64,000 bases of DNA. It comes from Eledone cirrhosa (taxonomy: Eukaryota). The notes beneath the pieces were generated by a model. The model searched no databases. It saw only the letters and a list, made by a program, of their open reading frames with translations, and was not told the DNA's origin. Positions 232-47,329 of this stretch are shown piece by piece. A program made the position numbers and the translations under genes. The DNA lies in assembly GCA_964016885.1 (NCBI GenBank), contig OZ024741.1, positions 225,246,001 through 225,310,000 of the forward strand, given 5' to 3'. Within the stretch, counting starts at the first letter, position 1; every line of letters begins with the position of its first letter.

Positions 232-511
232 TGTATGTATGTATGTATGTATGTATGTATGTATATAAAGATGTATTAACATATCATATAATGTATCGAT
301 GTATATTATATTCATGCTTATATATGTATGTATACATATAAAAGCACACTTACATACGCACCTCCACAGACACACACAGGCTCACAGCCCAAAGATAATA
401 CAACTTTAAACAAATAAAATAATGCTTACCTACGTGTATATATATATATATATATATAATTGAAAAAGTAGAGAATAACATGGTCAAGAGTACAAAAAAG
501 GGGATTTATTT

Positions 512-618
512 AGTTTAACAATTGTTTCTCTGATAAAGTTGTCTAAAAATTGCTGAACACTAGAAGCAGGGCCACTCAATTTCAAATACAATGCCAGCTC
601 GATCACTCTTCAGAAACT
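512..618 (-). ncRNA. Type I hammerhead ribozyme motif with extended stem II, in a (TA)n-flanked island (~460-690)
   Basis: Minus strand reads agttt-CTGAAGA-(long arm, tgatcgagctg/caactttatca pairing)-GAAAC-aatt-GTT-aaact. Stem I is agttt/aaact and stem III is palindromic. Confidence 0.7.
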
Positions 619-1100
619 GCTGCTGCTGTCATTATTTAGTATTCACAACTTCTAACTGGATTACCTATAACGATATTTTATTATCCCTTATATATATATA
701 TATATATAAGTTAAAACAATGAAATAAAAAATCAAGTCATTAGAGATATACTTCACTGCTTTACGATCGTTTCTAGGTGATGATAATACATTGTAGCTAT
801 ACTCCGTTATTGATCTATGTAAGGTTAGTTACAAAATATCAGATAAAGAGAATATTTACTTACATGCATATCACCCCAGAATAGACCCCACAACTTCCTG
901 TGGATACCTCTGTGTATATATATATATATATAATATTAAAGATACTATTTATGGTTATGTATATACTAAAACTTTTTATAGTTATATTTATTTTAAACAC
1001 TAAACAGTGAAGGTCAGTAATTTATTACTACCTTATTACCAGTAAGATAAATAGCTCAATGTAATAACATCAGTTGTTCTACAGAGCAGTTATATAGAAT

Positions 1101-3778: not shown

Positions 3779-3949
3779 TATATATATATAAATTTTCGCT
3801 TTACATAGCTATACTCTGTACAACACCATTCCAAACATTTCTATTTGTTTGATTTCCATCCTACATCCATAATTCTACAGCATCCATAACTACTAACTTG
3901 CTTCATTATCAATATCGTAAATCATTATATATGACTAATTTCTATTATG

Positions 3950-4677: not shown

Positions 4678-4736
4678 TATATATATATATAGTGACAATA
4701 AAAAGTCAGATTTGTAGCTTTTTATGAAACTTTATA

Positions 4737-4824
4737 GCATACTACAATTGTTTCGATATCGATCAGCTCGCTTTTGATCAATTGATCGGATGCCGACTCT
4801 TAATCGACACTTCTTCAGATATAC
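4737..4824 (-). ncRNA. Type I hammerhead motif with extended stem II
   Basis: gtatat-CTGAAGA-a-gtgtcgatta...tgatcgatat-c-GAAAC-aatt-GTA-gtatgc. Same family as 32120-32206. Confidence 0.8.
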
Positions 4825-4953
4825 GAGTTTACATGGGTGGGTCTCTACAGCCGCCTTAAACCAGGAGCACAACCCAGCGGGAGCCGGGCACCGTAACAGC
4901 ATTGAGTGCTTCGTTCAGCGTCGCCGCTAGTAACCACAAGTTACTCAAATAAT

Positions 4954-5435
<482 letters not shown>

Positions 5436-5534
5436 ATGTTGGTTGCTTAAAGCGTCCGTATGCGGTAGGCCGTATTAGCACTCAATGCTCTCGCAGAGTA
5501 TGATATCAAAGGAAAATCTGCTTCGTAGAATCGA

Positions 5535-5629
5535 GACGTATCCGATGACCGCGCGATTTCAGAGTCAGGTTTGATCACTATATCGATCGTGCCTCGAGCT
5601 GGTCGCCCGAGAAACAATTGTAATATGTC
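5535..5629 (+). ncRNA. Hammerhead-like motif with CCGATGA (U4C) core and extended stem II
   Basis: gacgtat-CCGATGA-(62 nt)-GAAAC-aatt-GTA-atatgtc. Stem I is 7 bp including one G.U pair. Confidence 0.65.
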
Positions 5630-5686
5630 CAGTAAATTCCTATCGTCGCAACACTGATTCTCTTTTTTCTGTGATATATATATATA

Positions 5687-5996: not shown

Positions 5997-6459
5997 AGAA
6001 ATTCAAAATAGTCCCTTACAATAAAATAGCTCTAGGAAAGAGAGTTTTCCGAGCCATATATTATAATTGAATATAAAAGAAAAACGAACACAGATATATA
6101 CATATATGTGTTCAAATCGCAAGATACCAGATTCGCTAAAGTAAAAAGAATACTAACTATAGACAATAGGGTTTGCCAGAATCAATTTAAGAATAAATCA
6201 AGAAAATAAATACAAACCGGAATTGTGGTAACTACCAATCACCCAGACAGCTTTGGTAATGCTGTTTCGCAAAATTAATTGTGAAGAGGAATACCGATTC
6301 TTGCTCATCAGTGGGTGAAGATTTAGTATCCTGGACACTTCTAAGTATATTAAAAAACTGAATAGTGTGTGTGTATATAATAACGCACATGGTTTCTGAA
6401 CGGCTCGAAAACTCTCTTTCCGAGAGCTATTTTATTGTAAGAGAATATTTTGAGTTTCT
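5997..6459. mobile_element. TIR element with internal HHR (copy 2)
   Basis: ~60-bp inverted arms at 5997-6055 and 6402-6459. Duplicate of 3340-3778. Confidence 0.8.
6239..6318 (-). ncRNA. Canonical type I hammerhead ribozyme (same as 3555-3634)
   Basis: Same 80-nt sequence as copy 1. Confidence 0.9.
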
Positions 6460-6635
6460 CTCTATATATATATACATTTTCGCTTTACATAGCTAAATAC
6501 AATAAATGTAATCTGAGTTTTTCGAATATTGATAATAATATTCGATTCATTTGCAATTATGTAAACAAGCCTCATTTTAAAGCCATGTCAGTAGAATGAG
6601 CCCCTCATTCTTGCTCTTGTGTTGGCATGTAAACA

Positions 6636-8663: not shown

Positions 8664-8842
8664 ATATATATACGGGGTAACAAATAATAGTTATATGCAG
8701 TCCACTTAGGTGTAGGCCAGTTATGGTACTCTGGGTAGTGGATGATATCAACCACTTGGCTAAGTTTGACTCAACAAGGCGTTTCCATAGTGATGCTGCA
8801 AGTACGCTGTAATTCCTATGTTGTAAACACTTGGAGTAATAA

Positions 8843-9647
8843 TAAATCAGGAAAGAAGAGTGACACGGTGTGCTATACAAAAAAGGTTTTTAATCTAATT
8901 GCTGACAATTGTTTCTCTGAACTGGTAGGTCTAGAGATCGCTATCCGCTTATTTTCGCGTTACTCGATCGCCAATACAAAATTATAACCAGTCAATTCAT
9001 CGGAGCTTGCGAGAATGAAGAGAATATACAGGCACGAAAAGAATATACAGGCTACTGTATGTAGTAGTAATGGCATTCAGTTAGAACAATAACAACAATA
9101 TCAACAATGCTAGCAATAAATTATTTGAAATAATCAGAACATCAATCTAGGTGAGAAGTATAGTATATCTATAAAAAACAACTATTACGGCCAACTGACC
9201 TACATTGTTTAAAAACACCAGCTAATCTTTACACTAGATATAATACACCCTACGACAGTCTTTACATGTCAATTTTATACATCTGCCTCATGTCAGCTAA
9301 ATTTACACGCTAAAATCATAGATATACTATACTTCCCACCTAGATTGATGTTGTGATTATTTCAAATAATTTATTGCTAGCATTGTTGATATTGTTGTTA
9401 TTGTTCTAACTGAATGCCATTACTACTATATATAGTAGCCTGTATATTCTTTTCATGCCTGTATATTCTCTTCATTCTCGCAAGCTACGGTGAATTGACT
9501 GGTTATAACTTTGTATTGGCGATCAAGTAACGCGAAAATAAGCGGATAGCGATCTCTAGACCTACCAGTTCAGAGAAACAATTGTCAGCAATTAGATTAA
9601 AAACCTTTTTTGTATAGCAAACCGTGTCACTCTTCTTTCCTGATTTA
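8843..9647. repeat. Foldback with ~330-bp arms and ~145-bp spacer
   Basis: 8843-9172 is the reverse complement of ~9317-9647. The right arm abuts a (TA)n. Confidence 0.95.
8901..9006 (-). ncRNA. Hammerhead-like motif with CCGATGA core and extended stem II; mirror copy at 9484-9589 (+) has a decayed core
   Basis: gct-CCGATGA-at-tgactggt...accagttca-ga-GAAAC-aatt-GTC-agc. Confidence 0.6.
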
Positions 9648-9977: not shown

Positions 9978-10197
9978 AATATAAGTATGTAAACGTACAT
10001 ACATATATGTATACAGACGTACAGTAGTATGTATATATATATATACATACATGCACACAAATATATATATATATATGTACGTATGGATTCACCGAACATT
10101 TATTATAATGCTCGGTGTGTTTGTAAACAAACACCCTGTATTAAGCCGTAGTGTCCAGCAACCATCGTTGCTCGTTTGTTCAACACTGACAAAGGAA

Positions 10198-10238
10198 CGC
10201 TGTACTAGTTTCAAGCTTATTAGCTATCGTCAGCAACG
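10198..10238 (-). ncRNA. Minimal PLE-type hammerhead
   Basis: cgttg-CTGACGA-t-agct-aata-agct-t-GAAAC-ta-GTA-cagcg. Confidence 0.85.
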
Positions 10239-10485
10239 TATACCTTCCTGCCAGATTGTTGAACGTATATACTTACCTTATGCATATTAACGGCTGAGTA
10301 GCCCAATTTGCATATTTAAGTAACAGCCGTACTAAGAGTGGGAAATGAAATTTCGTTTCATTTTTTCCGTTTATCGTTTTCGGTGCACCCGGCCGATTAA
10401 CCCACTCGATATGCAAATTGGGCTACTCAGCCGTTAATATGCATAAGGTAAGTATATACGTTCAACAATCTGTCAGGAAGGTATA

Positions 10486-10518
10486 CGTTGCTGACGATAG
10501 CTTGAAACTAGTACAGCG
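10486..10518 (+). ncRNA. Minimal hammerhead, mirror copy with stem II deleted
   Basis: cgttg-CTGACGA-tagctt-GAAAC-ta-GTA-cagcg. Confidence 0.7.
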
Positions 10519-10910
10519 TTCCTTTGTCAGTGTTGAACAAACGAGCAACGATGGTTGCCGGACACTACGGCTTAATACGGGATGTTTGTTTACAAACACA
10601 CCGAGCATTATAATAAATGTTCGGTGAATCCATACGTACATATATATATGTGTGCATGTATGTATATATATATACATACTACTGTACGTCTGTATACATA
10701 TATGTATGTACGTGTACATACTTATATTTAAATAACAGCCGTACTAAGAGTGGGAAATGAAATATCGTTTCATTTTTTCCGTTTATATATATATGTATAT
10801 GTATATATATATGTATATATATGTATATATATGTATATATATATATATGTATATATAATATTAATTCAAACTATTAACTAAAATAGACATTCGTGTGATC
10901 AAGTATATTT

Positions 10911-12210: not shown

Positions 12211-12311
12211 AGTTGAAAAAAATGAAAACGAAATTTCATTTCTCACTCTTAGTATGGCACTTACTTAAATGTAAGTCTGTATACATATATGTATGTACGT
12301 ATACATACATA

Positions 12312-12356
<45 letters not shown>

Positions 12357-12501
12357 GGAAGCAGAAAATTGCTTTTTGTGATCCAGTTTGTGGTTAAGAA
12401 AGCCAGTTTCATGGATGGTTTCACCGTACTGTTAGGGGTAACTCCATAAGTTTGTAATATTCCGTTCAATCTTGGAGTATAAAGTATAAAAGAGAAAACA
12501 C

Positions 12502-14618
12502 ATGATTATGAATATCAAATTCAAAAAGAGGAGGAACAATAAACTCCAGAATTACATAAATACATTCTTTAAAAAGCTGCGAACCACCAACGGAATTATT
12601 GTCGAAGTGGACAAACCTCAAATGTGTATACGATGGATGTTAATACATACAATAGCTTCATACGGAAGGAATTACATAGCAAATACAAAAAAACTAATGA
12701 GGCGGCACTGATAAACATCAACAACGAGGCACACAATATAGTCAAACACCTAGGAATAGAGGACAGAACGGAGCCACTTAGGCCATGTACCCCCACATTT
12801 AATCTCAAGGACCACAGAAAGGACCACAAGATAAACCTTGATTATAACCCCACAATTAGACTTATATGCCCGTCCAAATCGGACATCGGGAAAATTAGTA
12901 AACATATATTAGACAGAGTGATAGCACAAATGAAGAATAAACTAGTGATTAAACTATGGGGTAACTCTACCGAAACAATTAAGTGGTTTAACAATATAGC
13001 TAACAAAAAAGTATCTAAATTTATACAATTTGACATTAACGACTATATCCCCCCAACACCTTGGATAAAGCCTTAGCATTCGCCAAAGCCAATTCTGACC
13101 TAACAGATGACGAGATAAAATTCATATTAGCTGCTAGGAAAACAATAATTAAATTTGAAAACGCCTATTGGGAACGTAAGGATAGATTAAATAACTTTGA
13201 CATTATGATGGGGGCTAACGACTCGGCTCAAGTCACAGATTTAGTAGGTATTTACATAGCCCATAGTTTACAAAGTGAGTTTAGTGACCTTCACGGTGGA
13301 ATCTACAGAAACGACGCCCTTCTCCTAGTTAAGAACCTAAATAACCAGACCATAGAAAGACTGTAAGAATATTAGAAAGACTCTCGGTAAACTAGGCCTT
13401 AGCATAACGTATGAGTATAGCACTAAAACAGTTAACTTTCTAGACGCGACGCTTAACCTAAATACGGGACTTATAAGACCTTTTCAAAAGATTAATGAAA
13501 ACTTAGCATTCATCAACTGTAACTCAAACCACCCACTATCCATAATTAAATCCATTCCACGCAGCATATCCCTTAGGATCTCCCGCCTCTCGCCTAACCG
13601 ACAAATCTTCGAAGAACATGCAGAATACTACAATACCGCATTAGACAAGGCAGGCCACTTAGATAGAGTAGAATATATAGATGAAAGCCTCCGTAAAGCG
13701 CACACGAACACGCATAACACAAACTCCGGTAACACACGCACACACGCACTTACGCATAGAACTACAAAGTATACGGTAAATAGAAATACAACATCGAAAT
13801 CAAACAAGTCACGCAGTAGAAAATATATTTGGTATAACCCCATATTTAACACCTCTATTAGTACTAACCTATCCTCTACCTTCTTTAGAATAATAAATAA
13901 GCACTTTCCAGATTCACATAGATACAGCAAAATCCTTAACACTAATTCTATTAGACTATCTTACTCCACGGCACCAAACATAGAGGCACACATTAAGATG
14001 CTTAACGCTAAAAAGATACGTAACAACACCCGAACACAAATTTACAACAATAACAATACAATCACCATTGAACACAACAGAATATCTAATACTCAACCAC
14101 CCACTAATAGGCAAACAAAACGTAACACACTTGTACAGGCATCGCAGCCCACGAATAATGCCAAAGTTGCCCATGACAAGAATTGTAACTGCCACCTACC
14201 CGAAACCTGTCCATTACATAATGAATGTATGCAGTGTAACCTGGTTTACCAATGCATAGTGGAATCAGACAACCAGAAATGGTATTACATCGGAGCGACT
14301 GGGAATACATTTAAAGCTCGTTGGTATACACACCGTTACGCAATGAAACATTCTCAGCATCGTTATGTAACTACCCCTGCAAACAAGACCTGGCAACTGA
14401 GGGAAAGTAACCATCAATACACACTGAAGTGGAAAAAATTATCGAACTCTCCCCCATATCGGAGCGGTATTTGAAGCTGTCGATTATGCGACCTTGAGCT
14501 GTTCCACATCTTGAGTTCGAAGAATAAGTTACTCAACAATAAAGTCGAAAGATCAATTTATTGTAACCATAGACTCAAAGAGAAGTTTTCGCACTACAAG
14601 TGCAAATCGAACCCTTAA
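12502..14618 (+). pseudogene. Disrupted RT/GIY-YIG polyprotein ORF of the PLE
   Basis: Frameshift near 13060, stops at 13364 and 14472, and catalytic YRDD changed to YRND. Confidence 0.85.
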
Positions 14619-14873
14619 CCTCTTACTACCAACTGACAAACTTCATATACTTAAACTTTATACCCTCTTGTTGTATCTAAACCCTTTTAATTACCCACAA
14701 AAACCAATACCTATATCCCCCCTTCTCCTTCATTCCTCTTCTATTTCTTCGTTTTCTTCCTTCCCTTTTTGGCTATCTTTTCTTTTCTTCTTTCTCCCCC
14801 CTTCTTTGCTTTTATTTTTGTCATTATTATCTTTATCTTTATTTGTTATATATATATTTATCTCTTTATATCT

Positions 14874-14917
<44 letters not shown>

Positions 14918-15180
14918 ATCCCTCCCACTATGATCAATTTAATTCTCTTTAACTCACTACATTCCACGACATGAAGTCTACATATCAAAACTGATCAAGG
15001 AATCCTTCCACCTCTACCCCTCCCTCCATCTCAGTTTGTCACTCTACTTCCTAACTCTTCACCCCCTTCCTCTCTCTCTATACTATTCCGTTTGTCCCCT
15101 CTCCTTCTGATTCCTCTCTCTCTATACTAGTAAATACAATTCCAAATAAATGTTTTTTCTCTATTTCAAGAGTAACTTAC

Positions 15181-15282
15181 TATTTTGAAAAATTGGACTG
15201 TGAACAACAATTATAATTGAATGGCTGCTATTTGCAGTATAGCAATATAAGGTTGCACTTACCAATGAAACGGTCGTAAATA
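15181..15282 (+). ncRNA. U3:A8 hammerhead with extended stem II in the 3' end of the PLE
   Basis: tatt-TTGAAAA-attgg-(65 nt)-ccaat-GAAAC-ggtc-GTA-aata, 50 nt before the (TA)n. Confidence 0.7.
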
Positions 15283-15329
15283 CCTGGATAAAATCCTTCT
15301 CTTAATGCTTACCTGTGTTTTTTCTTTTA

Positions 15330-15381
<52 letters not shown>

Positions 15382-17419: not shown

Positions 17420-19430
17420 TTAGAGGTGGCAGCGATGGCAGCGATGGCAGCGATGGCAGTGGCAGAGGCGGCTGGGCCGCGGTGTTAATGGTGGCAGTGA
17501 TGGTAGTGATGACAACGATGGTAGCGATGGAGGCGGAGGCAGCGATGGCAGTGGTGGAAGTGATGGTAGTGGTGTTAATGGGGGCAGCGATGGTAGTGGT
17601 GGTAGCGATGGTAGTGGTGTTAATGGGGGCAGCGATGGTAGTGGTGGTAGCGATGGTAGTGGTGGCAGCGATGGTAGTGGTGGCAGCGATGGTAGTGGTG
17701 GCAGCGATGGTAGCGATGGTAGTGGTGGTAGCGATGGTAGTGGTGGCAGTGATGGTAGTGGTGGCAGCGATGGTAGTGGTGGCAGCGATGGTAGTGGTGG
17801 CAGTGATGGTAGTGGTGGTAGCGATGGTAGTGGTGGCAGTGATGGTAGTGGTGGCAGTGATGGTAGTGGTGGCAGTGATGGTAGTGGTGGCAGCGATGGT
17901 AGTGGTGGCAGTGATGGTAGTGGTGGTAGCGATGGTAGTGGTGGCAGTGATGGTAGTGGTGGCAGCGATGGTAGTGGTGTTAATGGGGGCAGCAATGGTA
18001 GTGGTGGCAGTGATGGTAGTGGTGGTAGCGATGGTAGTGGTGGTAGCGATGGTAGTGGTGGCAGCGATGGTAGTGGTGGCAGTGATGGTAGTGGTGGCAG
18101 TGATGGTAGTGGTGGCAGTGATGGTAGTGGTGGCAGCGATGGTAGTGGTGGCAGTGATGGTAGTGGTGTTAATGGGGGCAGCGATGGTAGTGGTGGCAGT
18201 GATGGTAGTGGTGGCAGTGATGGTAGTGGTGGCAGCGATGGTAGTGGTGGCAGTGATGGTAGTGGTGGCAGCGATGGTAGTGGTGGTAGCGATGGTAGTG
18301 GTGGCAGTGATGGTAGTGGTGGTAGCGATGGTAGTGGTGGCAGTGATGGTAGTGGTGGTAGTGATGGTAGTGGTGGCAGTGATGGTAGTGGTGGCAGTGA
18401 TGGTAGTGGTGGTAGCGATGGTAGTGGTGGCAGTGATGGTAGTGGTGGCAGTGATGGTAGTGGTGGTAGCGATGGTAGTGGTGGCAGTGATGGTAGTGGT
18501 GGTAGTGATGGTAGTGGTGGCAGTGATGGTAGTGGTGGTAGCGATGGTAGTGGTGGCAGCGATGGTAGTGGTGGCAGCGATGGTAGTGGTGGCAGTGATG
18601 GTAGTGGTGGTAGCGATGGTAGTGGTGGCAGTGATGGTAGTGGTGGCAGTGATGGTAGTGGTGGCAGTGATGGTAGTGGTGGCAGCGATGGTAGTGGTGG
18701 TAGCGATGGTAGTGGTGGCAGTGATGGTAGTGGTGGCAGCGATGGTAGTGGTGGCAGTGATGGTAGTGGTGGCAGTGATGGTAGTGGTGGTAGCGATGGT
18801 AGTGGTGGTAGCGATGGTAGTGGTGGCAGTGATGGTAGTGGTGGCAGTGATGGTAGTGGTGGTAGCGATGGTAGTGGTGGTAGCGATGGTAGTGGTGGCA
18901 GTGATGGTAGTGGTGGCAGTGATGGTAGTGGTGGCAGCGATGGTAGTGGTGGCAGTGATGGTAGTGGTGGCAGTGATGGTAGTGGTGGCAGTGATGGTAG
19001 TGGTGGCAGTGATGGTAGTGGTGGTAGCGATGGTAGTGGTGGCAGTGATGGTAGTGGTGGCAGTGATGGTAGTGGTGGCAGTGATGGTAGTGGTGGTAGC
19101 GATGGTAGTGGTGGCAGTGATGGTAGTGGTGGCAGTGATGGTAGTGGTGGTAGCGATGGTAGTGGTGGCAGTGATGGTAGTGGTGGCAGTGATGGTAGTG
19201 GTGGCAGTGATGGTAGTGGTGGTAGCGATGGCAGCGATGGTAGTGGTGGAAGCGATGGCAGCGATGGTAGTGGTGGTAGCGATGGCAGCGATGGTAGTGG
19301 TGGTAGCGATGGTAGTGGTGGCAGTGATGGTAGTGGTGGCAGCGATGGTAGTGGTGGCAGTGATGGTAGTGGTGGTAGCGATGGCAGCGATGGTAGTGGT
19401 GGCTGCGATGGTAGCAGAGGCAGTGGTGGC
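17420..19430. repeat. 18-bp G-rich minisatellite (GATGGTAGTGGTGGCAGT variants)
   Basis: About 100 tandem units, producing the PSLPPL and VMVVVA ORFs. Confidence 0.97.
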
Positions 19431-19639
19431 ATTTGTAGGTGTTTGTGTTGCTGGTGATGGTGGTGGTTGCGGTTGTGGTGTTTGGGGTGCTGGTGATGAT
19501 GGCGGTGGTGGTGATAGGGAAGTGGTGGTGGTGGTGGTTGTGGTGTTTGGGTGGTGGGATGGTGAGGGTTGTGGTGGTGGTGGGGTTAATGGATGTAGTG
19601 ATTATGCGGTGGATGTTGGAATATTTTTCGAATATATTT

Positions 19640-21611
19640 TTGTTGCTATTACCGTTGCAGCTGTTGTTGCTGTTGCTGCTGTTGTAGCTAGTGCTACTGT
19701 TGTTGTTATTGCTGTTGTTGTTGTTGTTGTTGTTGCTAGTGCTACTGTTGTTGTTATTGCTGTTGTTGTTGTTGTTGTTGCTAGTGCTACTGTTGTTGTT
19801 ATTGCTGTTGTTGTTGTTGTTGCTAGTGCTACTGTTGTTGTTATTGCTGTTGTTGTTGTTGCTAGTGCTACTGTTGTTGTTATTGCTGTTGTTGTTGTTG
19901 TTGTTGCTAGTGCTACTGTTGTTGTTATTGCTGTTGTTGTTGTTGTTGTTGTTGCTAGTGCTACTGTTGTTGTTATTGCTGTTGTTGTTGTTGTTGTAGC
20001 TAGTGCTACTGTTGTTGTTATTGCTGTTGTTGTTGTTGCTAGTGCTACTGTTGTTGTTATTGCTGTTGTTGTTGTTGTTGTTGCTAGTGCTACTGTTGTT
20101 GTTATTGCTGTTGTTGTTGTTGTTGTTGCTAGTGCTACTGTTGTTGTTATTGCTGTTGTTGTTGTTGTAGCTAGTGCTACTGTTGTTGTTATTGCTGTTG
20201 TTGTTGTTGTTGTTGTTGCTAGTGCTACTGTTGTTGTTATTGCTGTTGTTGTTGTTGTTGTTGCTAGTGCTACTGTTGTTGTTATTGCTGTTGTTGTTGT
20301 TGTTGTTGCTAGTGCTACTGTTGTTGTTATTGCTGTTGTTGTTGTTGTTGTTTCTAGTGCTACAGTGGTTGTTATTGCTGTTGTTGTTGTTGCTAGTGCT
20401 ACTGTTGTTGTTATTGCTGTTGTTGTTGTTGTTGTTGCTAGTGCTACTGTTGTTGTTATTGCTGTTGTTGTTGTTGCTAGTGCTACTGTTGTTGTTATTG
20501 CTGTTGTTGTTGAGGTTGTTGCTAGTGCTACTGTTGTTGTTATTGCTGTTGTTGTTGTTGTTGTTGCTAGTGCTACTGTTGTTGTTATTGCTGTTGTTGT
20601 TGTTGTTGTTGTTGCTAGTGCTACTGTTGTTGTTATTGCTGTTGTTGTTGTTGTTGTTGTTGCTAGTGCTACTGTTGTTGTTATTGCTGTTGTTGTTGTT
20701 GCTAGTGCTACTGTTGTTGTTATTGCTGTTGTTGTTGTTGTTGTTGCTAGTGCTACTGTTGTTGTTATTGCTGTTGTTGTTGTTGCTAGTGCTACTGTTG
20801 TTGTTATTGCTGTTGTTGTTGTTGTTGTTGCTAGTGCTACTGTTGTTGTTATTGCTGTTGTTGTTGTTGTTGTTGCTAGTGCCACTGTTGTTGTTATTGC
20901 TGTTGTTGTTGTTGTTGTTGTTGCTAGTGCTACTGTTGTTGTTATTGCTGTTGTTGTTGTTGTTGTTGCTAGTACTACTGTTGTTGTTATTGCTGTTGTT
21001 GTTGTTGTTGTTGTTGCTAGTGCTACTGTTGTTGTTATTGCTGTTGTTGTTGTTGTTGTTGCTAGTGCTACTGTTGTTGTTATTGCTGTTGTTGTTGTTG
21101 TTGTTGCTAGTGCTACTGTTGTTGTTATTGCTGTTGTTGTTGCTAGTGCTACTGTTGTTGTTATTGCTGTTGTTGTTGTTGTTGTTGCTAGTGCTACTGT
21201 TGTTGTTATTGCTGTTGTTGTTGTTGTTGTTGCTAGTGCTACTGTTGTTGTTATTGCTGTTGTTGTTGTTGTTGTTGCTAGTGCTACTGTTGTTGTTATT
21301 GTTGTTGTTGTTGTTGTTGTTGTTGCTAGTGCTACTGTTGTTGTTATTGCTGTTGTTGTTGTTGTTGTTGCTAGTGCTACTGTTGTTGTTATTGCTGTTG
21401 TTGTTGTTGCTAGTGCTACTGTTGTTGTTATTGCTGTTGTTGTTGTTGTTGTTGCTAGTGCTACTGTTGTTGTTATTGTTGTTGTTGTTGTTGCTAGTGC
21501 TACTGTTGTTGTTATTGCTGTTGTTGTTGTTGTTGTTGTTGCTAGTGCTACTGTTGTTGTTATTGCTGTTGTTGTTGTTGTTGTGGTGTTGCTAGTGCTA
21601 CTGTTGTTGTT

Positions 21612-21644
<33 letters not shown>

Positions 21645-23689
21645 GATAGTGCTACTGTTGTTGTTATTGTTGTTGTTGTTGTTGTTGCTAGAGCTACGGT
21701 TGTTGTTGTTATTGCTGTTGTTGTTGTTGTTAGTGCTACTGTTGTTGTTATTGCTGTTGTTGTTGTTCCTAGTGCTACTGTTGGTGTTATTGCTGTTGTT
21801 GTTGTTGCTAGTGCTACTGTAGTTGTTATTGCTGTTGTTGTTGTTGTTGCTAGTGCTACTGTTGTTGTTATTGCTGTTGTTGTTGTTGCTAGTGCTACTG
21901 TTGTTGTTGTTGCTGTTGTTGTTGCTAGTGCTACTGTTGTTGTTATTGCTGTTGTTGTTATTGCTGTTGTTGTTGTTGCTAGTGCTACTGTTGTTGTTAT
22001 TGCTGTTGTTGTTGCTAGTGCTTCTGTTGTTGTTATTGCTGTTGTTGTTGTTGCTAGTGCTACTGTTGTTCTTATTGCTGTTGTTGTTGTTGCTAGTGCT
22101 ACTGTTGTTGTTATTGCTGTTGTTGTTGTTGTTGCTAGTGCTACTGTTGTTGTTATTGCTGTTGTTGTTGTTGTTGTAGCTAGTGCTACTGTTGTTGTTA
22201 TTGCTGTTGTTGTTGTTGTTTCTAGTGCTAGAGTGGCTGTTATTGCTGTTGTTGTAGCTAGGGCTACTGTTGTTGTTGTTGTTGTTTCTAGTGCTACTGT
22301 TGTTGTTATTGCTGTTGTTTGTGTTGTTGCTAGTGCTACTGTTGTTGTTGTTGTTGCTGTTGTTGTTGCTAGTGCTACTGTTGTTGTTATTGCTGTTGTT
22401 GTTGTTGCTAGTGCTACTGTTGTTGTTATTGCTGTTGTTGTTGTTGCTAGTGCTACTGTTGTTGTTATTGCTGTTGTTGTTGTTGTTGCTAGTGCTACTG
22501 TTGTTCTTATTGCTGTTGTTGTTGTTGCTAGTGCTACTGTTGTTGTTATTGCTGTTGTTGTTGTTGTTGCTAGTGCTACTGTTGTTGTTATTGCTGTTGT
22601 TGTTGTTGTTGCTAGTGCTACTGTTGTTGTTATTGCTGTTGTTGTTGTTGTTGCTAGTGCTACTGTTGTTGTTATTGCTGTTGTTGTTGTTGCTAGTGCT
22701 ACTCTTGTTGTTATTGCTGTTGTTGTTGTTGTTGCTAGTGCTACTGTTGTTGTTATTGCTGTTGTTGTTGTTGTTGCTAGTGCTACTGTTGTTGTTATTG
22801 CTGTTGATGTTGTTGCTAGTGCTACTGTTGTTGTTAATGCTGTTGTTGTTGTTGTTAGTGCTACTGTTGTTGTTATTGCTGTTGTTGTTGTTGCTAGTGC
22901 TACTGTTGTTGTTATTGCTGTTGTTGTTATTGCTGTTGTTGTTGTTGCTAGTGCTACTGTTGTTGTTATTGCTGTTGTTGTTGTTGCTAGTGCTACTGTT
23001 GTTGTTATTGTTGTTGTTGTTGCTAGTGCTACTGTTGTTGTTATTGCTGTTGTTGTTGTTGCTAGTGCTACTGTTGTTGTTATTGCTGTTGTTGTTGTTG
23101 CTAGTGCTACTGTTGTTGTTATTGTTGTTGTTGTTGCTAGTGCTACTGTTGTTGTTATTGTTGTTGTTGTTGCTAGTGCTACTGTTGTTGTTATTGCTGT
23201 TGTTGTTGTTGCTAGTGCTACTGTCGTTGTTATTGCTGTTGTTGTTGTTGCTAGTGCTACTGTTGTTGTTATTGCTGCTGTTGTTGTTGTTAGTGCTACT
23301 GTTGTTGATACTGCTGGTGTTGTTGTTGTTGCTAGTGCTACTGTTGTTGTTATTGCTGTTGTTGTTGTTGTTGTTGCTAGTGCTACTGTTGTTGTTATTG
23401 TTATTGCTGTTGTTGTTGTTGCTAGTGCTACTGTTGTTGTTATTGCTGTTGTTGTTGTTATTGCTGTTGTTGTTGTTGTTGTTGTTGCTAGTGCTACTCT
23501 ATTTGTTATTGCTGTTGTTGTTGTTATTGCTGTTGTTGTTGTTGTTGCTAGTGCTACTGTTGTTGCTATTGCTGTTGTTGTTATTGCTTTTGTTGTTGTT
23601 GTTGTTGCTAGTGCTACTGTTGTTGCTATTGCTGTTGTTGTTGTTATTGCTGTTGTTGTTGTTGTTGTTGTTGTTGTTGCTAGTGCTTC

Positions 23690-23741
<52 letters not shown>

Positions 23742-26270
23742 GCTAGTGCTACTGTTGTTGTTATTGCTGTTGTTGTTGTTGCTAGTGCTACTGTTGTTGT
23801 TATTGCTGTTGTGGTTGTTGTTGCTAGTGCTTCTGTTGTTGTTGTTGTTGTTGTGTTTGTTGCTAGTGCTACTGTTGTTGTTATTGCTGTTGTTGTTGTT
23901 GTTGCTACTGCTACTGTTGTGGTTATTGCTGTTGTTGTTATTGCTGTTGTTGTTGTTGCTAGTGCTACTGTTGTTCTTATTGCTGTTGTTGTTGTTGCTA
24001 GTGCTACTGTTGTTGTTATTGTTGTTGTTGTTGTTGCTAGTGCTACTGTTGTTGTTATTGCTTTTGTTGTTGGTGTTGTTGCTAGTGCTACTGTTGTTGT
24101 TATTGTTGTTGTTGTTGTTGTTGCTAGTGCTACTGTTGTTGTTATTGCTGTTGTTGTTGTTGTTGCTAGTGCTACTGTTGTTGTTATTGCTGTTGTTGTT
24201 GTTGCTAGTGCTACTGTTGTTGTTATTGCTGTTGTTGTTGTTGTTGCTAGTGCTACTGTTGTTGTTATTGTTGTTGCTGTTGTTGTTGCTAGTGCTACTG
24301 TTGTTGTTATTGCTGTTGTTGTTGCTAGTTCTACTGTTGTTGTTATTGTTGTTGTCGTTGTTGTTGCTAGTGCTACTGTTGTTGTTATTGCTGTTGTTGT
24401 TGTTGTTGTTTCTAGTGCTACAGTGGTTGTTATTGCTGTTGTTGTTGTTGCTAGTGCTACTGTTGTTGTTATTGCTGTTGTTGTTGTTGTTGTTGCTAGT
24501 GCTACTGTTGTTGTTATTGCTGTTGTTGTTGTTGCTAGTGCTACTGTTGTTGTTATTGCTGTTGTTGTTGAGGTTGTTGCTAGTGCTACTGTTGTTGTTA
24601 TTGCTGTTGTTGTTGTTGTTGTTGTTGCTAGTGCTACTGTTGTTGTTATTGCTGTTGTTGTTGTTGTTGTTGCTAGTGCTACTGTTGTTGTTATTGCTGT
24701 TGTTGTTGTTGTTGTTGCTAGTGCTACTGTTGTTGTTATTGCTGTTGTTGTTGTTGTTGTTGTAGCTAGTGCTACTGTTGTTGTTGTTGCTAGTGCTACT
24801 GTTGTTTTTATTGCTGTTGTTGTTGTTGTTGTTGCTAGTGCTACTGTTGTTGTTATTGCTGTTGTTGTTGTTGTTGTTGTTGCTAGTGCTACTGTTGTTG
24901 TTATTGCTGTTGTTGTTGTTGTAGCTAGTGCTACTGTTGTTGTTATTGCTTTTGTTGTTGTTGTTGTTGCTAGTGCTACTGTTGTTGTTATTGCTGTTGT
25001 TGTTGTTGTTGTTGCTAGTGCTACTGTTGTTGTTATTGCTGTTGTTGTTGTTGTTGTTGCTAGTGCTACTGTTGTTGTTATTGCTGTTGTTGTTGTTGTT
25101 GTTGCTAGTGCTACTGTTGTTGTTATTGCTGTTGTTGTTGTTGTTGTTGCTAGTGCTACTGTTGTTGTTATTGCTGTTGTTGTTGTTGTTGTTGCTAGTG
25201 CTACTGTTGTTGTTATTGCTGTTGTTGTTGTTGTTGTTACTAGTGCTACTGTTGTTGTTATTGCTGTTGTTGTTGTTGTTGTTTCTAGTGCTACAGTGGT
25301 TGTTATTGCTGTTGTTGTTGTTGCTAGTGCTACTGTTGTTGTTATTGCTGTTGTTGTTGTTGTTGTTGCTAGTGCTACTGTTGTTGTTATTGCTGTTGTT
25401 GTTGTTGCTAGTGCTACTGTTGTTGTTATTGCTGTTGTTGTTGTTGTTGTTGCTAGTGCTACTGTTGTTGTTATTGCTGTTGTTGTTGTTGTTTTTGCTA
25501 GTGCTACTGTTGTTGTTATTGCTGTTGTTGTTGTTGTTGTTGTTGCTAGTGCTACTGTTGTTGTTATTGCTGTTGTTGTTGTTGTTGTTGTTGCTAGTGC
25601 TACTGTTGTTGTTATTGCTGTTGTTGTTGTTGCTAGTGCTACTGTTGTTGTTATTGCTGTTGTTGTTGTTGTTGTTGCTAGTGCTACTGTTGTTGTTATT
25701 GCTGTTGTTGTTGTTGCTAGTGCTACTGTTGTTGTTATTGCTGTTGTTGTTGTTGTTGTTGCTAGTGCTACTGTTGTTGTTATTGCTGTTGTTGTTGTTG
25801 TTGTTGCTAGTGCTACTGTTGTTGTTATTGCTGTTGTTGTTGTTGTTGTTGCTAGTGCTACTGTTGTTGTTACTGCTGTTGTTGTTGTTGTTGTTGCTAG
25901 TGCTACTGTTGTTGTTATTGCTGTTGTTGTTGTTGTTGTTGCTAGTGCTACTGTTGTTGTTATTGTTGTTGTTGTTGTTGTTGTTGCTAGTGCTACTGTT
26001 GTTGTTATTGCTGTTGTTGTTGTTGTTGTTGCTAGTGCTACTGTTGTTGTTATTGCTGTTGTTGTTGTTGCTAGTGCTACTGTTGTTGTTATTGCTGTTG
26101 TTGTTGTTGTTATTGCTAGTGCTACTGTTGTTGTTATTGTTGTTGTTGTTGTTGCTAGTGCTACTGTTGTTGTTATTGCTGTTGTTGTTGTTGTTGTTGT
26201 TGCTAGTGCTACTGTTGTTGTTATTGCTGTTGTTGTTGTTGTTGTTGTTGCTAGTGCTACTGTTGTTGTT

Positions 26271-26301
<31 letters not shown>

Positions 26302-28294
26302 CTAGTGCTACTGTTGTTGTTATTGTTGCTGTTGTTGTTGTTGCTAGAGCTACGGTTGTTTTTGTTATTGCTGTTGTTGTTGTTGTTAGTGCTACTGTTG
26401 TTGTTATTGCTGTTGTTGTTGTTGCTAGTGCTACTGTAGTTCTTATTGCTGTTGTTGTTGTTGTTGCTAGTGCTACTGTTGTTGTTATTGCTGTTGTTGT
26501 TGTTGCTAGTGCTACTGTTGTTGTTGTTGCTGTTGTTGTTGCTAGTGCTACTGTTGTTGTTATTGCTGTTGTTGTTGTTGCTAGTGCTACTGTTGTTGTT
26601 ATTGCTGTTGTTGTTGCTAGTGCTTCTGTTGTTGTTATTGCTGTTGTTGTTGTTGCTAGTGCTACTGTTGTTCTTATTGCTGTTGTTGTTGTTGCTAGTG
26701 CTACTGTTGTTGTTATTGCTGTTGTTGTTGTTGTTGCTAGTGCTACTGTTGTTGTTATTGCTGTTGTTGTTGTTGTTGTAGCTAGTGCTACTGTTTTTGT
26801 TATTGCTGTTGTTGTTGTTGTTGTTTCTAGTGCTACAGTGGTTGTTATTGCTGTTGTTGTAGCTAGGGCTACTGTTGTTGTTGTTGTTGTTTCTAGTGCT
26901 ACTGTTGTTGTTATTGCTGTTGTTGGTGTTGTTGCTAGTGCTACTGTTGTTGTTGTTGTTGCTGTTGTTGTTGCTAGTGCTACTGTTGTTGTTATTGCTG
27001 TTGTTGTTGTTGCTAGTGCTACTGTTGTTGTTATTGCTGTTGTTGTTGTTGCTAGTGCTACTGTTGTTGTTATTGCTGTTGTTGTTGTTGTTGCTAGTGC
27101 TACTGTTTTTCTTATTGCTGTTGTTGTTGTTGCTAGTGCTACTGTTGTTCTTATTGCTGTTGTTGTTGTTGTTGCTAGTGCTACTGTTGTTGTTATTGCT
27201 GTTGTTGTTGTTGTTGCTAGTGCTACTGTTGTTGTTATTGCTGTTGTTGTTGTTGCTAGTGCTACTGTTGTTGCTATTGCTGTTGTTGTTGTTGTTAGTG
27301 CTACTGTTGTTGTTAATGCTGTTGTTGTTGTTGTTGCTAGTGCTACTCTTGTTGTTATTGCTGTTGTTGTTGTTGTTGCTAGTGCTACTGTTGTTGTTAT
27401 TGCTGTTGTTGTTGTTGTTGTTGCTAGTGCTACTGTTGTTGTTATTGCTGTTGATGTTGTTGCTAGTGCTACTGTTGTTGTTAATGCTGTTGTTGTTGTT
27501 GTTAGTGCTACTGTTTTTGTTATTGCTGCTGTTGTTGCTAGTGCTACAGTTGTTGTTATTGCTGTTGTTGTTATTGCTGTTGTTGTTGTTGCTAGTGCTA
27601 CTGTTGTTGTTATTGCTGTTGTTGTTGTTGCTAGTGCTACTGTTGTTGTTATTGTTGTTGTTGTTGCTAGTGCTACTGTTGTTGTTATTGCTGTTGTTGT
27701 TGTTGCTAGTGCTACTGTTGTTGTTATTGCTGTTGTTGTTGTTGCTAGTGCTACTGTTGTTGTTATTGTTGTTGTTGTTGCTAGTGCTACTGTTGTTGTT
27801 ATTGCTGTTGTTGTTGTTGCTAGTGCTACTGTCGTTGTTATTGCTGTTGTTGTTGTTGCTAGTGCTACTGTTGTTGTTATTGCTGCTGTTGTTGTTGTTA
27901 GTGCTACTGTTGTTGATACTGCTGGTGTTGTTGTTGTTGCTAGTGCTACTGTTGTTGTTATTGCTGTTGTTGTTGTTGTTGTTGCTAGTGCTACTGTTGT
28001 TGTTATTGTTATTGCTGTTGTTGTTGTTGCTAGTGCTACTGTTGTTGTTATTGCTGTTGTTGTTGTTATTGCTGTTGTTGTTGTTGTTGTTGCTAGTGCT
28101 ACTCTATTTGTTATTGCTGTTGTTGTTGTTATTGCTGTTGTTGTTGTTGTTGTTGTTGCTAGTGCTACTGTTGTTGCTATTGCTGTTGTTGTTATTGCTT
28201 TTGTTGTTGTTGTTGTTGCTAGTGCTACTGTTGTTGCTATTGCTGTTGTTGTTGTTATTGCTGTTGTTGTTGTTGTTGTTGTTGTTAGTGCCTC

Positions 28295-28331
<37 letters not shown>

Positions 28332-31928: not shown

Positions 31929-32119
31929 CACACATACACACACACATACACATATATATATAATCCTTATCGGGCCCTCCTCGTCTGTTTCTCGTTGGGT
32001 TGTACTCCAGATTTAAGGCGGCTATAGTTTGAAGAGTGTATATATAGGGTGACAATAGGAAGTCAGATTATGAGCTTGTTATGAAATTTTATAGCATATG
32101 TGACGACCCATGTAAACTC

Positions 32120-32206
32120 GCCTATCTGAGGAGATGTCGTTTAAAAGACGGGAGCTGATTGCCTGATCAAATTGAACTGATCGATATCGAAACAGTTGTA
32201 ATATGC
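32120..32206 (+). ncRNA. Type I hammerhead motif in an island with inverted ends (32054-32099 / 32201-32246)
   Basis: gcctat-CTGAGGA-gatgtcg...cgatatc-GAAAC-agtt-GTA-atatgc. Confidence 0.75.
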
Positions 32207-32254
32207 AATAAAGTTTCATAAAAAGCTGCAAATCTGACTTCCTATTCTCTCTCT

Positions 32255-36104: not shown

Positions 36105-36242
36105 GGTGTTTGTGTTCTATATACACTGGTCATAGACACACAAACATATAAGTATAACAAATTCAGAAACGAAATATATATATATATAAATAAAATAAAA
36201 TAACAGGAGGCTGGACTGGTGTAAATCCTTGAAAGGTTTATT

Positions 36243-36300
36243 ATACTATGATCATTTCAATGACCGGGTTCCATATGAATCCAGTGATATCATCAGGTAT
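36243..36300 (-). ncRNA. Type I hammerhead ribozyme motif
   Basis: atac-CTGATGA-tatc-actgg...ccggt-catt-GAAAT-gatc-ATA-gtat, ~55 nt from a (TA)n. Confidence 0.8.
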
Positions 36301-39300
36301 TGGAATATAACAAAGGAATATGTAAAAAACCATGGGTCCGAAAAATCAGAGACAGAGACAAAGAGGACGACTGACCAACTAGCTGCTCGGCCAGTCGCCC
36401 TCAAAATGGTGGTAACTGAATCTACTAATGAACATCTGGTGAGGGGGCGAAGGCTTATAATGCACTACCACCTCTCCGTCAAAGAAAAAGGGGAAGAAAG
36501 AAAGGGAGAAAGAAGTCAGCATAAGGGTCACACTACATTCATGCTAGAAAATGCCGCGAAAAAATGCTACTTCAAAGAATCTATAACGGGTGTCTGTATG
36601 GTCTAATGTGTGAACCGAAGATTGGAACGTTAAACTTATGTTGCGAGTTATAGGATGAAATTAAATTAAATTAAAAATATTAAATTGCAAAACGATAAAT
36701 TGAAAAATAAGTTATTAGAGAATTAAAGGTTAAGGTAGCGAGATTTATTTAATGAACTTACGGAGAGAGTCTTATATTAACAAATTTATTTCGATAAGAT
36801 ATTAGGATGGGATATAGAGTAAAGATTTCGATTGGGAGTCCCCCCCCATCATGAGTCAGCCAGTCTCAAGTGGTATCGTCCAGCGAAAGGAATGGAAATT
36901 AATTTTTCCAAGTACTCTAGGAACGTAGCTACCTTAGGCTCCGGGACCGCTAGCGGGAACTCCACAATTTCGACAGGCCATCGTCTATACCAAACGAATA
37001 CTATTAAATCCCACATGAGGGGTTTATTTACGTGCCAGTAGAGGCATGATACAGCTAATAGTTATGCCTAAACCTGGAGTTTATAGGTATAAGTATAATA
37101 TGGCGGCCAAAACAGGCGGCGCGGTGGGACCGGGGCAAAGGAAGCCGTTCCGAGTAATTTCGTTTACCGAAAGAGGAGAAGTCTATTTTTCCGAGCACTC
37201 AAGGAAGGCTGAACTTTCCGAGTGCCCAGCGCGCAGCCGGGAAAAGCCACCACACAAGTCGAAGGTAGCAACCCCATGAAAAGTGCAAAAAGACCAAAAT
37301 TATTTTAAAGTCCCAGTTAGTCCGGGTTATAAGTAGTGTGGTTCTTAGGTGGGTAGGGGTCTATAAAAGGTGCATAATGACCTGAGTAAGAAAAGTTACA
37401 AAAAATAATAAAAGCAGGATACAAAGATAAAATACAAATATAAAGATAGAATACATTGATAAAAATACATTAATAAAATAATAAAAAATAAAAAAATATA
37501 AAACAAAATACATTAATGAAATAATAAAAAAATTAATAAAGGTAAATAAGAATCAATATTGATCAAGTTGTAGTAAGATAATACAGGTTGTACATATAGA
37601 TATAGAGGATGAAGGAGATGTATATAGTAGATATATATTAATAAAAGGAATTCCAACTTTGTCTGATTTACTCGTTTTATTTACAATCCTTTAAAATTAT
37701 AATGATATTATAGTATGGTAGAATATTAAATGTTAAGTGTTAATAGAACAAGTACTTTCATGTTTTTGCAATCTTCAGGGTCATATTCTGTGGTGACAGT
37801 CAAGTTTGCAATTTTCAACTGTAATGAGATGGGTAAATTGTGTACCTTATATACAGTGAAAAGTGGCTAAAGAATGCTAGGTTTTGCAAACTGTATTTCG
37901 ACCAATCGGTGTGTAGTTTCACTGGATTACTAAAGCTGATTGGTTTAGGCGTCACGGTTGGTTGAGCATGTCTAACGACTTCTATATCATCACCATCAAC
38001 ATCACTTTTAGTATTAATATTGTTGTTGTTGTTAGTGGTGGTAGTCGACATGGTCGTAGGCGTAGTCATAGTAGGAGTAATACCCCTAAGCATTATTATT
38101 GTTCATTTAGCTTGGGTTGGAATTTATCAATAAAATTCTTTTCTTTAATTTTTCTCTTGATTTCACTTGGGCTGTGTAATTTGTAGAATGGAAATATTAT
38201 GAATATTTTCTGACCACATGTTGCTAGATAGTTACTCAGGGGTATCTGACGGACATTTGGGTCTCTGATTTGCTGTCGGTGCACCCGTGCACGTTCCGAT
38301 AGTGCATTTCCAGTTTGACCGACATATAGTTCTTCACAATTCGGGCATTTAATGCAGTAAATTAGATTTCTGATTTGCAGTTCATATTTGCATTTGGGAA
38401 TATTTTTCCAGTTTTTGTGTTCATATATTGACCGGTGCGTATGGATTGACATGTGCCACATCGACTATCATTGCATTTAGATACAGTGAATGATTGGTCT
38501 TTGTTGTTAAGGTCAAACTTTGCCTTTGTTAGTAATTACTTCCAATTTTTCGGCTGTCTTTTACTAAGAGTCAAAGATCGGTCTGTGATTAAGCCTTTTA
38601 ATTCATTACTTTGAGCAATGATCGGTAGGTTTGCTTTGGCAGTGTTGAAGATATTCTGGTGACATGGGTTGTGTGTCATTATAAATGGTATGACCAGTTC
38701 TTGGTTTCTTCTTCCTTGGGTTGTCCTAAGTTGTTGTATAGGTATTTTTATAGCCCGCTGTATGCTATTTTCTATAAGTAGAGATGGGTATTTTTGTTTG
38801 AGCAAAAATTCTCTCAGTTCTGTTAGGCGTTTGTTCCTGGTATTCCTATATTCTACAATGGTACAAATTCTTCTGGTTAGGCAGTATGGGATATTGCGTT
38901 TTGTATGAGGTGGATGGCATGACTTAAAATTCAAATATTGATGGGTGTCTGTGTGTTTATAATATATATCTGTGGTAATGTTGGTGTCGTTTTTGATTAC
39001 CATTATATCTAGGAATGGTAATTTGGTACTGCTCATCTCTTTTGTGAATTGGAGAGATGGGTGTAGGTTATTCAGGAGGTATTGAACTCATCCAGAATAT
39101 CTAGAGATTCTGTCCAGATGATGAAACAGTCGTCAAGGTATCTCTTCCAACACTTTTCAATCTATTTTCTAAAGTCAGTACTATATTTTTGCTCTATTTC
39201 TTGGTAGAGTTGTTGTTCTAAGTATCCCATTACAGATTTCGCGTAAACGGGAGCAAACTTCGTTCCCATCGCTGTGCCTCTAATTTGGATGTAATTCTTT

Positions 39301-39390
39301 CCATGAAGAAGAAAGTGTTGTTTTTCAGAATAAGTTTGACTGCGTCTAATATAAATGGCGCTGTGAATCTAGTGGGAATCACTTCTCTAT

Positions 39391-39491
39391 GGATGAAAGG
39401 CAAAGTCAACCGCGGCGGGATTTGAACTCAGATCGTAAAGGGACGTAACTATGCTGGAAAGCATGGTGCCCGACCCTCTACCGATACTGCC
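39391..39491 (-). mobile_element. SINE fragment inside the PLE RT (duplicated at 43693-43793)
   Basis: GGATGAAAGGCAAAGTCAACC..CCGATACTGCC interrupts the RT between RPIIAG and motif B'. Confidence 0.85.

Positions 39492-47221: not shown

Positions 47222-47329
<108 letters not shown>

Follow-up and report, generated by a model that had tools for sequence, protein, structure and literature searches.

In this work we analyzed a stretch of 64,000 nucleotides of the genome of Eledone cirrhosa (the window), which carries a reverse transcriptase (RT)/GIY-YIG element with a hammerhead motif at its 3' end, as well as several isolated hammerheads with a long stem II, referred to as islands, at positions 512, 4737, 5535, 9484 and 36243. 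The question raised by this locus is whether the element and the islands have a common origin, and what the long arm of these hammerheads represents. An initial annotation, made from the sequence of the window, proposed that the islands share the architecture of the end of the element, and that they are extreme 5' truncations or trans-mobilised partners of Penelope-like elements (PLEs) of this kind.

According to the sections of the report cited here, the Hydra clade of PLEs is defined by a single ORF with the motifs RWK, DKT and CxCx5C, a GIY-YIG endonuclease (EN) without CCHH, and CxxC/CxH; its members are generally shorter than 3 kb, insert in (TA)n, and carry a one-sided tail of 30-40 bp (Craig et al. 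2021, PMC8557442; for the tail, legend of Fig. 2). Most metazoan PLE hammerhead copies are solo, and the relevant section of their description considers them 'probably related to truncated PLEs' (Cervera and de la Pena 2014, PMC4209133). For the Poseidon element PAc, the portion of the study referred to here reports two internal RT start sites, cutting and extension of both target strands, and a ribozyme that is protein-assisted (Frangieh et al. 2024, PMC11167929).

Results

A hammerhead at the 3' end of the RT/GIY-YIG element

A descriptor scan of both strands located a type I hammerhead on the forward strand at 15181..15282, separated by 575 nt from the RT/GIY-YIG remnant that lies upstream. 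It includes a stem I of 4 bp (15181-84/15279-82), the core UUGAAAA with a U3:A8 pair (15185-91), the GAA (15267-69), and a palindromic stem III of 8 nt (15270-77) followed by the GUA triplet, the cut being predicted after 15278. Stem II (15192..15266) spans 75 nt from A9 to G12; its 5-bp base closes a 65-nt insert, and the arm is predicted to fold as an imperfect rod (z -2.9 versus shuffles). The U3:A8 core and the 65-nt insert are those of the initial annotation, which had placed the motif 50 nt before the terminal (TA)n.

With the strict descriptor, 31 matches were obtained in 464 kb, made up of the window and of 40 further 10-kb stretches, versus 1-6 in five dinucleotide shuffles, and the class with an 8-nt stem III and a stem II of at least 30 nt gave 5 matches versus 0 in the shuffles. 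At the gathering level Rfam returned no hammerhead in the window; the whole-window list by E-value was dominated by microsatellite matches, among the matches listed, and a search of 15140-15325 with E up to 10 gave 4 chance matches and no hammerhead. Since short-loop descriptors and Rfam miss long-arm ribozymes, the hammerhead counts for such genomes are likely too low.

A core with the 3-8 pair and the NUH triplet is present in 20/20 copies, which were selected by this same region. Among the six named sites, U3:A8 is confined to the 15185 family; the others have CUGA-N-GA or U4C cores, U4C being the majority core in families I5535 (25/30 copies) and I9484 (29/30 copies). U3:A8 cores are also found in one short-arm family of the E. 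cirrhosa genome and in one metagenome Hydra (L267:4176, L270:4530, L379), so this covariation likely arose more than once. The stem III octamers of nine out of ten families are predicted to form an 8-bp self-complementary duplex, that of F467 being imperfect.

When the window monomer was folded, stems I and III failed to form, and three out of five whole hammerheads gave a folding z close to zero. It could be considered that the window-family hammerhead is a non-cleaving relic, kept since the region doubles as a start signal for the RT. Its stem I is formed by 4 A-U/U-A pairs and an upstream hairpin is able to sequester the core; two other families are fixed for U4C, which has been reported to lower in vitro activity considerably (PMC3088659), and, in the portion of the Poseidon study used here, ribozyme mutants still insert in vitro (PMC11167929). 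Nonetheless, U3:A8 is a two-sided change that preserves the 3-8 pair, the core letters and the self-complementary stem III are kept across 12 families whose UTRs are otherwise unalignable, and low activity of the monomer is the norm for PLE hammerheads; a relic seems to us rather improbable. We favor the reading of 15181-15282 as an RNA motif that is predicted to self-cleave and that lies at the 3' end of a PLE of the Hydra clade.

Architecture of the window element and its intact relatives

The window copy lies between two (TA)n tracts (12280..12351 and 15328..15377) and consists of an inverted arm joined to a 5'-truncated body. The inverted arm (12352..12502, reverse strand) includes the last ~22 nt before the short 3' end described below and a tail of ~128 nt, and ends at the long 3' site. 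The body, on the forward strand, is formed by a 5'-truncated and frameshifted Hydra ORF remnant that includes RT, thumb, linker and GIY-YIG (12503..14609), followed by a 3' UTR that reaches the short 3' site (14610..15327). Within the remnant, the CxCx5C linker and a GIY-YIG endonuclease without CCHH map to 14154..14609, with one in-frame stop and with CxxC and CxH close to the end. The remnant is 92.6% identical over 2392 nt to a full-length copy in locus L021, and in this full unit the sequence of the inverted arm is located between the short 3' end and the start of the ORF, and corresponds to the 5' UTR.

In a genome protein search the best 150 of 34,200 candidates were scored, and nine loci with long open frames were examined. 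One of these, L463, has an intact 778-aa ORF (from Met) of the window's family, with the motifs RWK, DKT, YRDD, CxCx5C, YIG, CxxC and CxH, and behind this ORF lies the same U3:A8 hammerhead; the layout of L463 is an ORF of ~2.33 kb, a 3' UTR of ~0.9 kb and a 5' UTR. The window-family hammerhead is also carried by L465, and a search up to 1.5 kb from the stop of L464 and L466 did not detect it. The possibility contemplated in the initial annotation that other copies of this PLE lack the motif does not apply to L463 and L465, which were picked by their ORFs. In L467-L471 we found six near-identical intact 768-aa frames of a sister family with an 85-nt arm and 78% RT identity to the window's family; these frames also have the full set of Hydra motifs. 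This sister family is young, shows partial tandem repeats, and was likely active recently.

The assignment of these elements to Hydra rests on their motifs, matched by eye to those of Hydra-1_Obim, and on an EN tree that was built without Neptune, Poseidon and Nematis outgroups. RWK is present in L021 and L463 and has been truncated away in the window copy; DKT in place of DKG is found in L463 and in the drivers of I512 and I9484, and is frameshifted in the window copy; the CxCx5C linker is present in the window, L179, L181, L183 and L327; CCHH is absent, and CxxC and CxH flank the conserved E and N, as observed in the alignment and the EN sequences. Insertion into (TA)n holds for these elements, and the hammerhead in the terminal repeat is present as a variant, with U3:A8 and a 75-nt stem II. 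Unlike typical Hydra, the element exceeds 3 kb (L463), size being a typical and non-defining trait. No Pfam match was obtained for the Hydra proteins of the window or L021; among 25 homologues, GIY-YIG was matched in two and RVT_1 in one. Of 61 homologues, the one that bears an organism name comes from Octopus, which would suit a cephalopod host.

A different RT/GIY-YIG element occupies 38096-47800 on the reverse strand as tandem units ~4.3 kb apart, and adjoins at 37620 the unit that carries the 36243 hammerhead. It has a Pfam GIY-YIG match (E 2e-7) and a CxxC inside the endonuclease, and no hammerhead was found in it by the strict descriptor scan.

Origin of the hammerhead islands

Island 512 (459..695, reverse strand; 79-nt arm, cut site 517) appears as a truncated 3' end of Hydra family I512 and has an inverted tail piece at 638-695. 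The same applies to island 4737 in relation to family I4737 (4692..4956, reverse strand; 57-nt arm, cut site 4743, inverted tail from 4845), and to island 5535 in relation to family I5535 (5431..5674, forward strand; 62-nt arm, U4C core, cut site 5622, inverted tail up to 5516). Island 9484 is an inverted pair of family I9484 (8670..9645; 81-nt arm, U4C core), in which the minus arm (~8670-9172) carries the tail, and the plus arm (9183-9645) has a decayed core with the cut site at 9586; it extends 399 nt 5' of its cut site. A further island of the I4737 type, absent from the initial annotation, is located at 31983..32246 (forward strand; 56-nt arm, cut site 32200, inverted tail).

The distance from the cut site to the microsatellite is 54 nt at 15185, 58 at 512, 51 at 4737, 52 at 5535, 59 at 9484 and 58 at 36243. 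The match in spacing on which the initial annotation relied is therefore real (51-59 nt at all six sites), but it is non-diagnostic, given that several short-arm Hydra consensi end ~35-46 nt past the cut site, as calculated from the entries used of Craig et al. Files S1 and S2.

The islands at 512, 4737, 5535 and 9484 each belong to a multi-copy family, and a first look gave at least 1,200-2,500 candidates per family. Extension in the 5' direction reached RT/GIY-YIG ORFs on the same strand in all four. Family I512 joins a Hydra RT/EN at 4 places among 30 loci, with 858-1042 nt from EN to core, and I9484 in 5/30 loci (825-842 nt). For I5535, no same-strand EN was found in the first 60 loci, and after walking 5' EN and hammerhead were found together in 7/30 loci, ~1.9-2.0 kb apart. 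For I4737 there was no EN join in the first 30 loci and one in the second 30 (L327), whose UTR is common in parts to L314, L319, L328 and L331; this is the weakest of the four links and rests on one EN-bearing locus. The shared 5' extents increase as an unbroken ladder that starts at ~150 nt and reaches full length or the edge of the loci, and a fixed 5' end for I4737 and I5535 was ruled out by walking 5'. In the EN tree the four driver families are distinct from one another and from the window's family. Given that each island joins its own Hydra endonuclease ORF in other copies, the islands are very probably 5' truncations of four separate Hydra families, and not of the window element. From the initial proposal, the truncation of the four islands was borne out (for 4737 at one locus) and so was their tie to autonomous drivers, except that the window element is the parent of none.

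The islands could also be conceived as short non-autonomous retrozyme-like elements that are replicating units of their own, mobilised in trans. The start of many I4737 and I5535 copies lies no more than ~45 nt from the core, the non-coding 36243 unit carries a hammerhead at each end, and animal retrozymes have been reported to derive from PLE repeats, in the part of the report considered here (bioRxiv 10.64898/2026.07.22.740005). Against such an origin, the 5' ends form the ladder mentioned above, which reaches the ORFs in all four families, no short head-to-tail arrays were seen in the loci examined, and short starts are favored by ranking the matches on a hammerhead query. We consider it very improbable in general, and for 512, 5535 and 9484 it is already largely refuted; truncation of Hydra elements remains our reading of the four islands.

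Eight copies of the six studied families are present in the 64-kb window (1-37620) versus two in 400 kb sampled elsewhere, an excess that may reflect either a local insertion hotspot or the selection of the window. Other hammerheads were noticed in the window. Two 97% identical 479-nt copies at 3340-3810 and 6017-6495 (reverse strand) have a different type I design, with a 7-bp stem I, a 36-nt stem II and a 19-nt stem III (cores at 3627 and 6311). The inverted pair at 10090-10640, which also occurs in L265, L268 and L297, carries a short-arm hammerhead with a 14-nt stem II and a 6-nt palindromic stem III (core at 10233, reverse strand), and a hammerhead-like match at 55632-55680, with a 12-nt stem II and a long stem III, lies within a common inverted repeat. 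The window also includes satellite arrays with units of 18 bp and 39-45 bp, which span ~12 kb (17538-29406) and contain very long open frames of low complexity, an 84-bp tandem repeat with higher-order periods of 168/252 bp (51533-52393), and a 120-aa frame (30149-30511, reverse strand) which we take to resemble a fragment of a mariner-type transposase.

Two fixed 3' ends and the pairing of inverted copies

In every family a short 3' end is located 46-59 nt past the cut site, a long end follows after another 73-164 nt, and the tail starts with ACUC or a close variant. In the window's family, 7/20 copies run past the short end through the ~128-nt tail, so that the (TA)n junction that the initial annotation took as the terminus marks only the shorter of two fixed ends. 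The stretch between the short and the long end corresponds to the 5' UTR of the following unit. An independent sequencing run showed loose ends into (TA)n at both 3' sites.

Among 105 loci that were unselected on the tail we found 38 inverted pairs, 65 single copies and 2 duplicates. The inverted pairs combine a long with a short end in 37/38 cases and two short ends in one, and none combines two long ends (p 1.4e-10 versus 0.5). An earlier count of 81/83 long and short pairs was dropped because its queries contained tail sequence. A one-sided tail has been accounted for by two internal RT start sites, with cutting and extension of both strands (PMC11167929), and the count would fit one start site per strand.

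A non-coding unit at 36243

The hammerhead at 36243 did not hold as an orphan long-arm island: the copy runs 1.44 kb 5' in the window (36185..37620, reverse strand; cut site 36247), has an arm of 31 nt, and represents the 3' portion of a 1.9-kb non-coding hammerhead unit. The hammerhead-to-hammerhead distance was 1887 and 1905 nt in two of the 16 loci checked. No Hydra profile match was found inside the unit in 29 loci, whereas the control set matched in 13/29. The unit is dispersed, and given that it shows the same tail and inversion pattern as the PLE families, it is likely mobilised in trans by the Hydra machinery, in agreement with the trans-mobilised partners initially proposed. No autonomous partner sharing its hammerhead was found among the sampled loci, and only partial tandems of the unit were seen. 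The tandem RT/GIY-YIG units at 38.1-47.8 kb were also considered as the element whose 3' end is 36243, and this was ruled out by the other 29 copies, which run past 37620 into a different common sequence. A sister of the unit (L275:300-1300) keeps 106/113 nt (94%) from the core to the 3' end, and ~78% just upstream.

Distribution of the long stem II among Hydra elements

Of the Hydra rows used of Craig et al. File S2, 26/26 have a CUGA core and a loop II of 3-10 nt, including Hydra-1_Obim; the latter, an octopus family that is not among the rows of the EN tree, has a stem II of ~23 nt. We collected 79 metagenome Hydra loci, some of them near-duplicates, and scanned the 63 that reach the end of EN; in 34/34 of those with a hammerhead, stem II has 10-25 nt and the motif is placed 96-344 nt after EN. 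In the E. cirrhosa genome, 12 EN-linked families have a stem II of 31-99 nt and one (L214) has 11 nt, and short-arm hammerhead families are also present; the EN link of the 53-nt-arm family comes from one locus with a TA run in between. In the long-arm clade the distance from EN to core is 494-2023 nt, versus 96-344 nt in the metagenome Hydra elements.

An EN tree of 47 rows, based on the 146 columns of the EN domain and with unsettled bootstrap, places 18 rows of the E. cirrhosa genome on one branch (97/86), the hammerhead being determined for 11 of these 18. L214, with its 11-nt arm, groups among the 28 metagenome rows, outside the long-arm branch. The similarity between arms tracks the EN tree (z ~4.5 for I4737/I5535, and ~3 for P15185/I512), and most pairs of arms have no sequence similarity. 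As judged from this tree, within the E. cirrhosa genome a single Hydra subclade is characterized by the long stem-II arm. Further long-arm hammerhead families were noticed in L270, L288, L289 and L300 (50-52 nt), L294 and L297 (49 nt) and L284 (36 nt), all of them with a stem III of 9-10 nt.

A conserved internal loop in the arm

The arms fold as imperfect rods, with z from -0.7 to -5.6, and 9/12 at or below -1.9. In the window the conserved part of the arm (15216..15246) includes a helix closed by the pair G15219-C15243, followed by an internal loop in which A-R-U (15220-22; AAU in the window copy, AGU in the family) is opposite to Y-A-G (15240-42). In an alignment of six families of the window's subclade, G-A-x-U in the 5' strand and A-G-C in the 3' strand are invariant. 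The A-R-U/Y-A-G loop sits on a G-C pair 27-32 nt from A9 in 6/6 families, and is found in 26/27, 18/22 and 32/32 copies of three of the families. A relaxed motif is also present in I5535 and I4737, 13-14 nt from A9 (~2% of shuffles each), which gives eight families in total; these two were outside the derivation of the motif, and it was loosened by one letter, accepting any letter for Y, to include them. The motif is absent from eight other arms, including those of 36243 and the 99-nt arm.

RNAalifold returned no structure from the sequence-only alignment of the six families. In a hand-drawn structure, 90% of the cells are paired, versus 27-49% when the partners are slid, a count that leans in favor of the structure because it was drawn from the same six sequences; two-sided changes occur in 9/15 of its pairs, and in 3/5 of those in the helix under the motif. 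Within family I4737 no compensatory change was found among 21 arms.

With the same origin of the islands, the long arm could still be tolerated bulk, formed by fold-back or template-switch insertions in loop II that accumulated while the 3' UTRs in this host became longer in general, with selection acting on the base of stem II only. The long 3' UTRs of this clade would agree with this, as would the frequent formation of inverted repeats by these elements, the variable length of the arms (31-99 nt) with their general dissimilarity in sequence, and the eight arms that lack the motif. Substitution rates among genomic copies are also similar in arm and flank; given that decay after insertion is expected to be neutral, these rates are uninformative about the master elements. 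Tolerated bulk does not account well for the loop and its closing G-C pair, which six families have conserved, at an almost constant distance from the core, despite two-sided change in the neighboring helix, nor for the recurrence of the loop in the distant I5535/I4737 branch, and we regard it as unlikely. We consider it probable that the arm loop is under selection, and its conservation suggests that it is likely a docking site for a protein.

The sequencing run X5, whose kind is unrecorded and whose organism code is that of X1, has three A>G variants and one T>C variant at 44-62% of the depth in the 3' strand of the arm (L021:3183-3193; window 15240-15250). These variants are absent or nearly so in X1, and absent in 12/12 genomic copies; they may come from a diverged subfamily or, in case X5 is RNA, from A-to-I editing. 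Regarding A-to-I editing before insertion, the arms of the genomic copies showed A>G at 0.015 and T>C at 0.026, with no excess of A>G on the sense strand.

Discussion

We propose, with a probability that we estimate at roughly 70%, that the hammerhead forms the end of a Hydra PLE, that four of the islands are truncated Hydra families, and that the long arm is a trait of one subclade with a likely protein-docking loop. Following the biochemistry of Poseidon, the endonuclease would cut both strands of a TA tract, reverse transcription would start at two internal sites of the RNA, one per strand, and the two cDNAs would be joined at their 5' ends. Early stalling of reverse transcription would leave a hammerhead island, the ribozyme would cleave as a double hammerhead through its palindromic stem III with the help of a protein, and the 1.9-kb non-coding unit would borrow the Hydra machinery in trans.

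These elements resemble the Hydra clade, including Hydra-1_Obim, in the single ORF with the same motifs, the (TA)n targeting, the 3' hammerhead with a palindromic stem III, and the inverted 5'-truncated partner with the tail on one end. They differ from the published elements, as far as the cited sections describe them, in that stem II has 31-99 nt, with one family having U3:A8 and two U4C, in contrast with a loop II of 3-10 nt and CUGA; in addition, their 3' UTRs reach 2 kb, their tails have 73-164 nt instead of 30-40 bp, and the units exceed 3 kb (PMC8557442). A short stem I, a palindromic stem III, an unpaired base at the foot of stem II, and a U3-A8 variant (Cercyon PLE) are shared with the metazoan PLE hammerheads, but the helix II considered 'large' in these is 6-8 bp long, and a long rod or conserved internal loop is not described in the section cited (PMC4209133). 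An enlarged loop II (29-35 nt) also occurs in PLE-X of spike mosses; according to the entries used of Craig et al. File S2, these are Chlamys-related, EN-minus and rDNA-targeting elements with shorter arms, and presumably independent.

With Poseidon PAc, as described in the cited portion of that study, the Hydra families share two fixed 3' ends past the hammerhead, the AT-rich target, and the cutting and extension of both strands. However, the PAc start sites are adjacent and inside the ORF, whereas here they would be in the 5' UTR, 73-164 nt apart, and the pairing of long and short ends was counted here on genomic copies (PMC11167929). The 36243 unit, in turn, is like the non-LTR retrozymes in being non-coding and hammerhead-bearing, and these are described as PLE-derived in the part of the report cited; in contrast, it is 1.9 kb long and dispersed, with the tail and inversion pattern of PLEs and partial tandems only (bioRxiv 10.64898/2026.07.22.740005).

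The interpretation of solo hammerheads as truncated PLEs has been published before, as have U3:A8 cores and one-sided tails, and the link of the islands to Hydra drivers was expected from the literature. In our literature search, which covered the PLE hammerhead variants incompletely, no account of long stem-II Hydra hammerheads was found; the search likewise gave no printed description of a long arm that is confined to one clade and bears a conserved loop, of the long tails, or of the 37/38 rule.

The role of the hammerhead in PLEs is puzzling, since it is kept everywhere and yet it was dispensable for insertion in vitro and needed a protein to cleave. The elements described here offer a handle on this role: a conserved loop that can be mutated, intact near-identical ORFs (L467-L471), two separated start sites, and the rule of long and short pairing. 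As a tentative idea, more doubtful than probable, the G-A-R-U/N-A-G-C loop may dock the telomerase-like RT of the element, which would switch on a weak ribozyme and gate its cleavage; jointly with this, the docked RT may set the short start site ~50 nt past the cut, coupling cleavage to twin priming at the long and short sites. The 1.9-kb non-coding unit, for its part, is a candidate intermediate between PLEs and retrozymes. If the docking idea is true, the long arm would be an RNA module grafted into stem II by a Hydra subclade, presumably a counterpart of the activation domain of telomerase RNA, and these elements would carry a natural protein-gated hammerhead.
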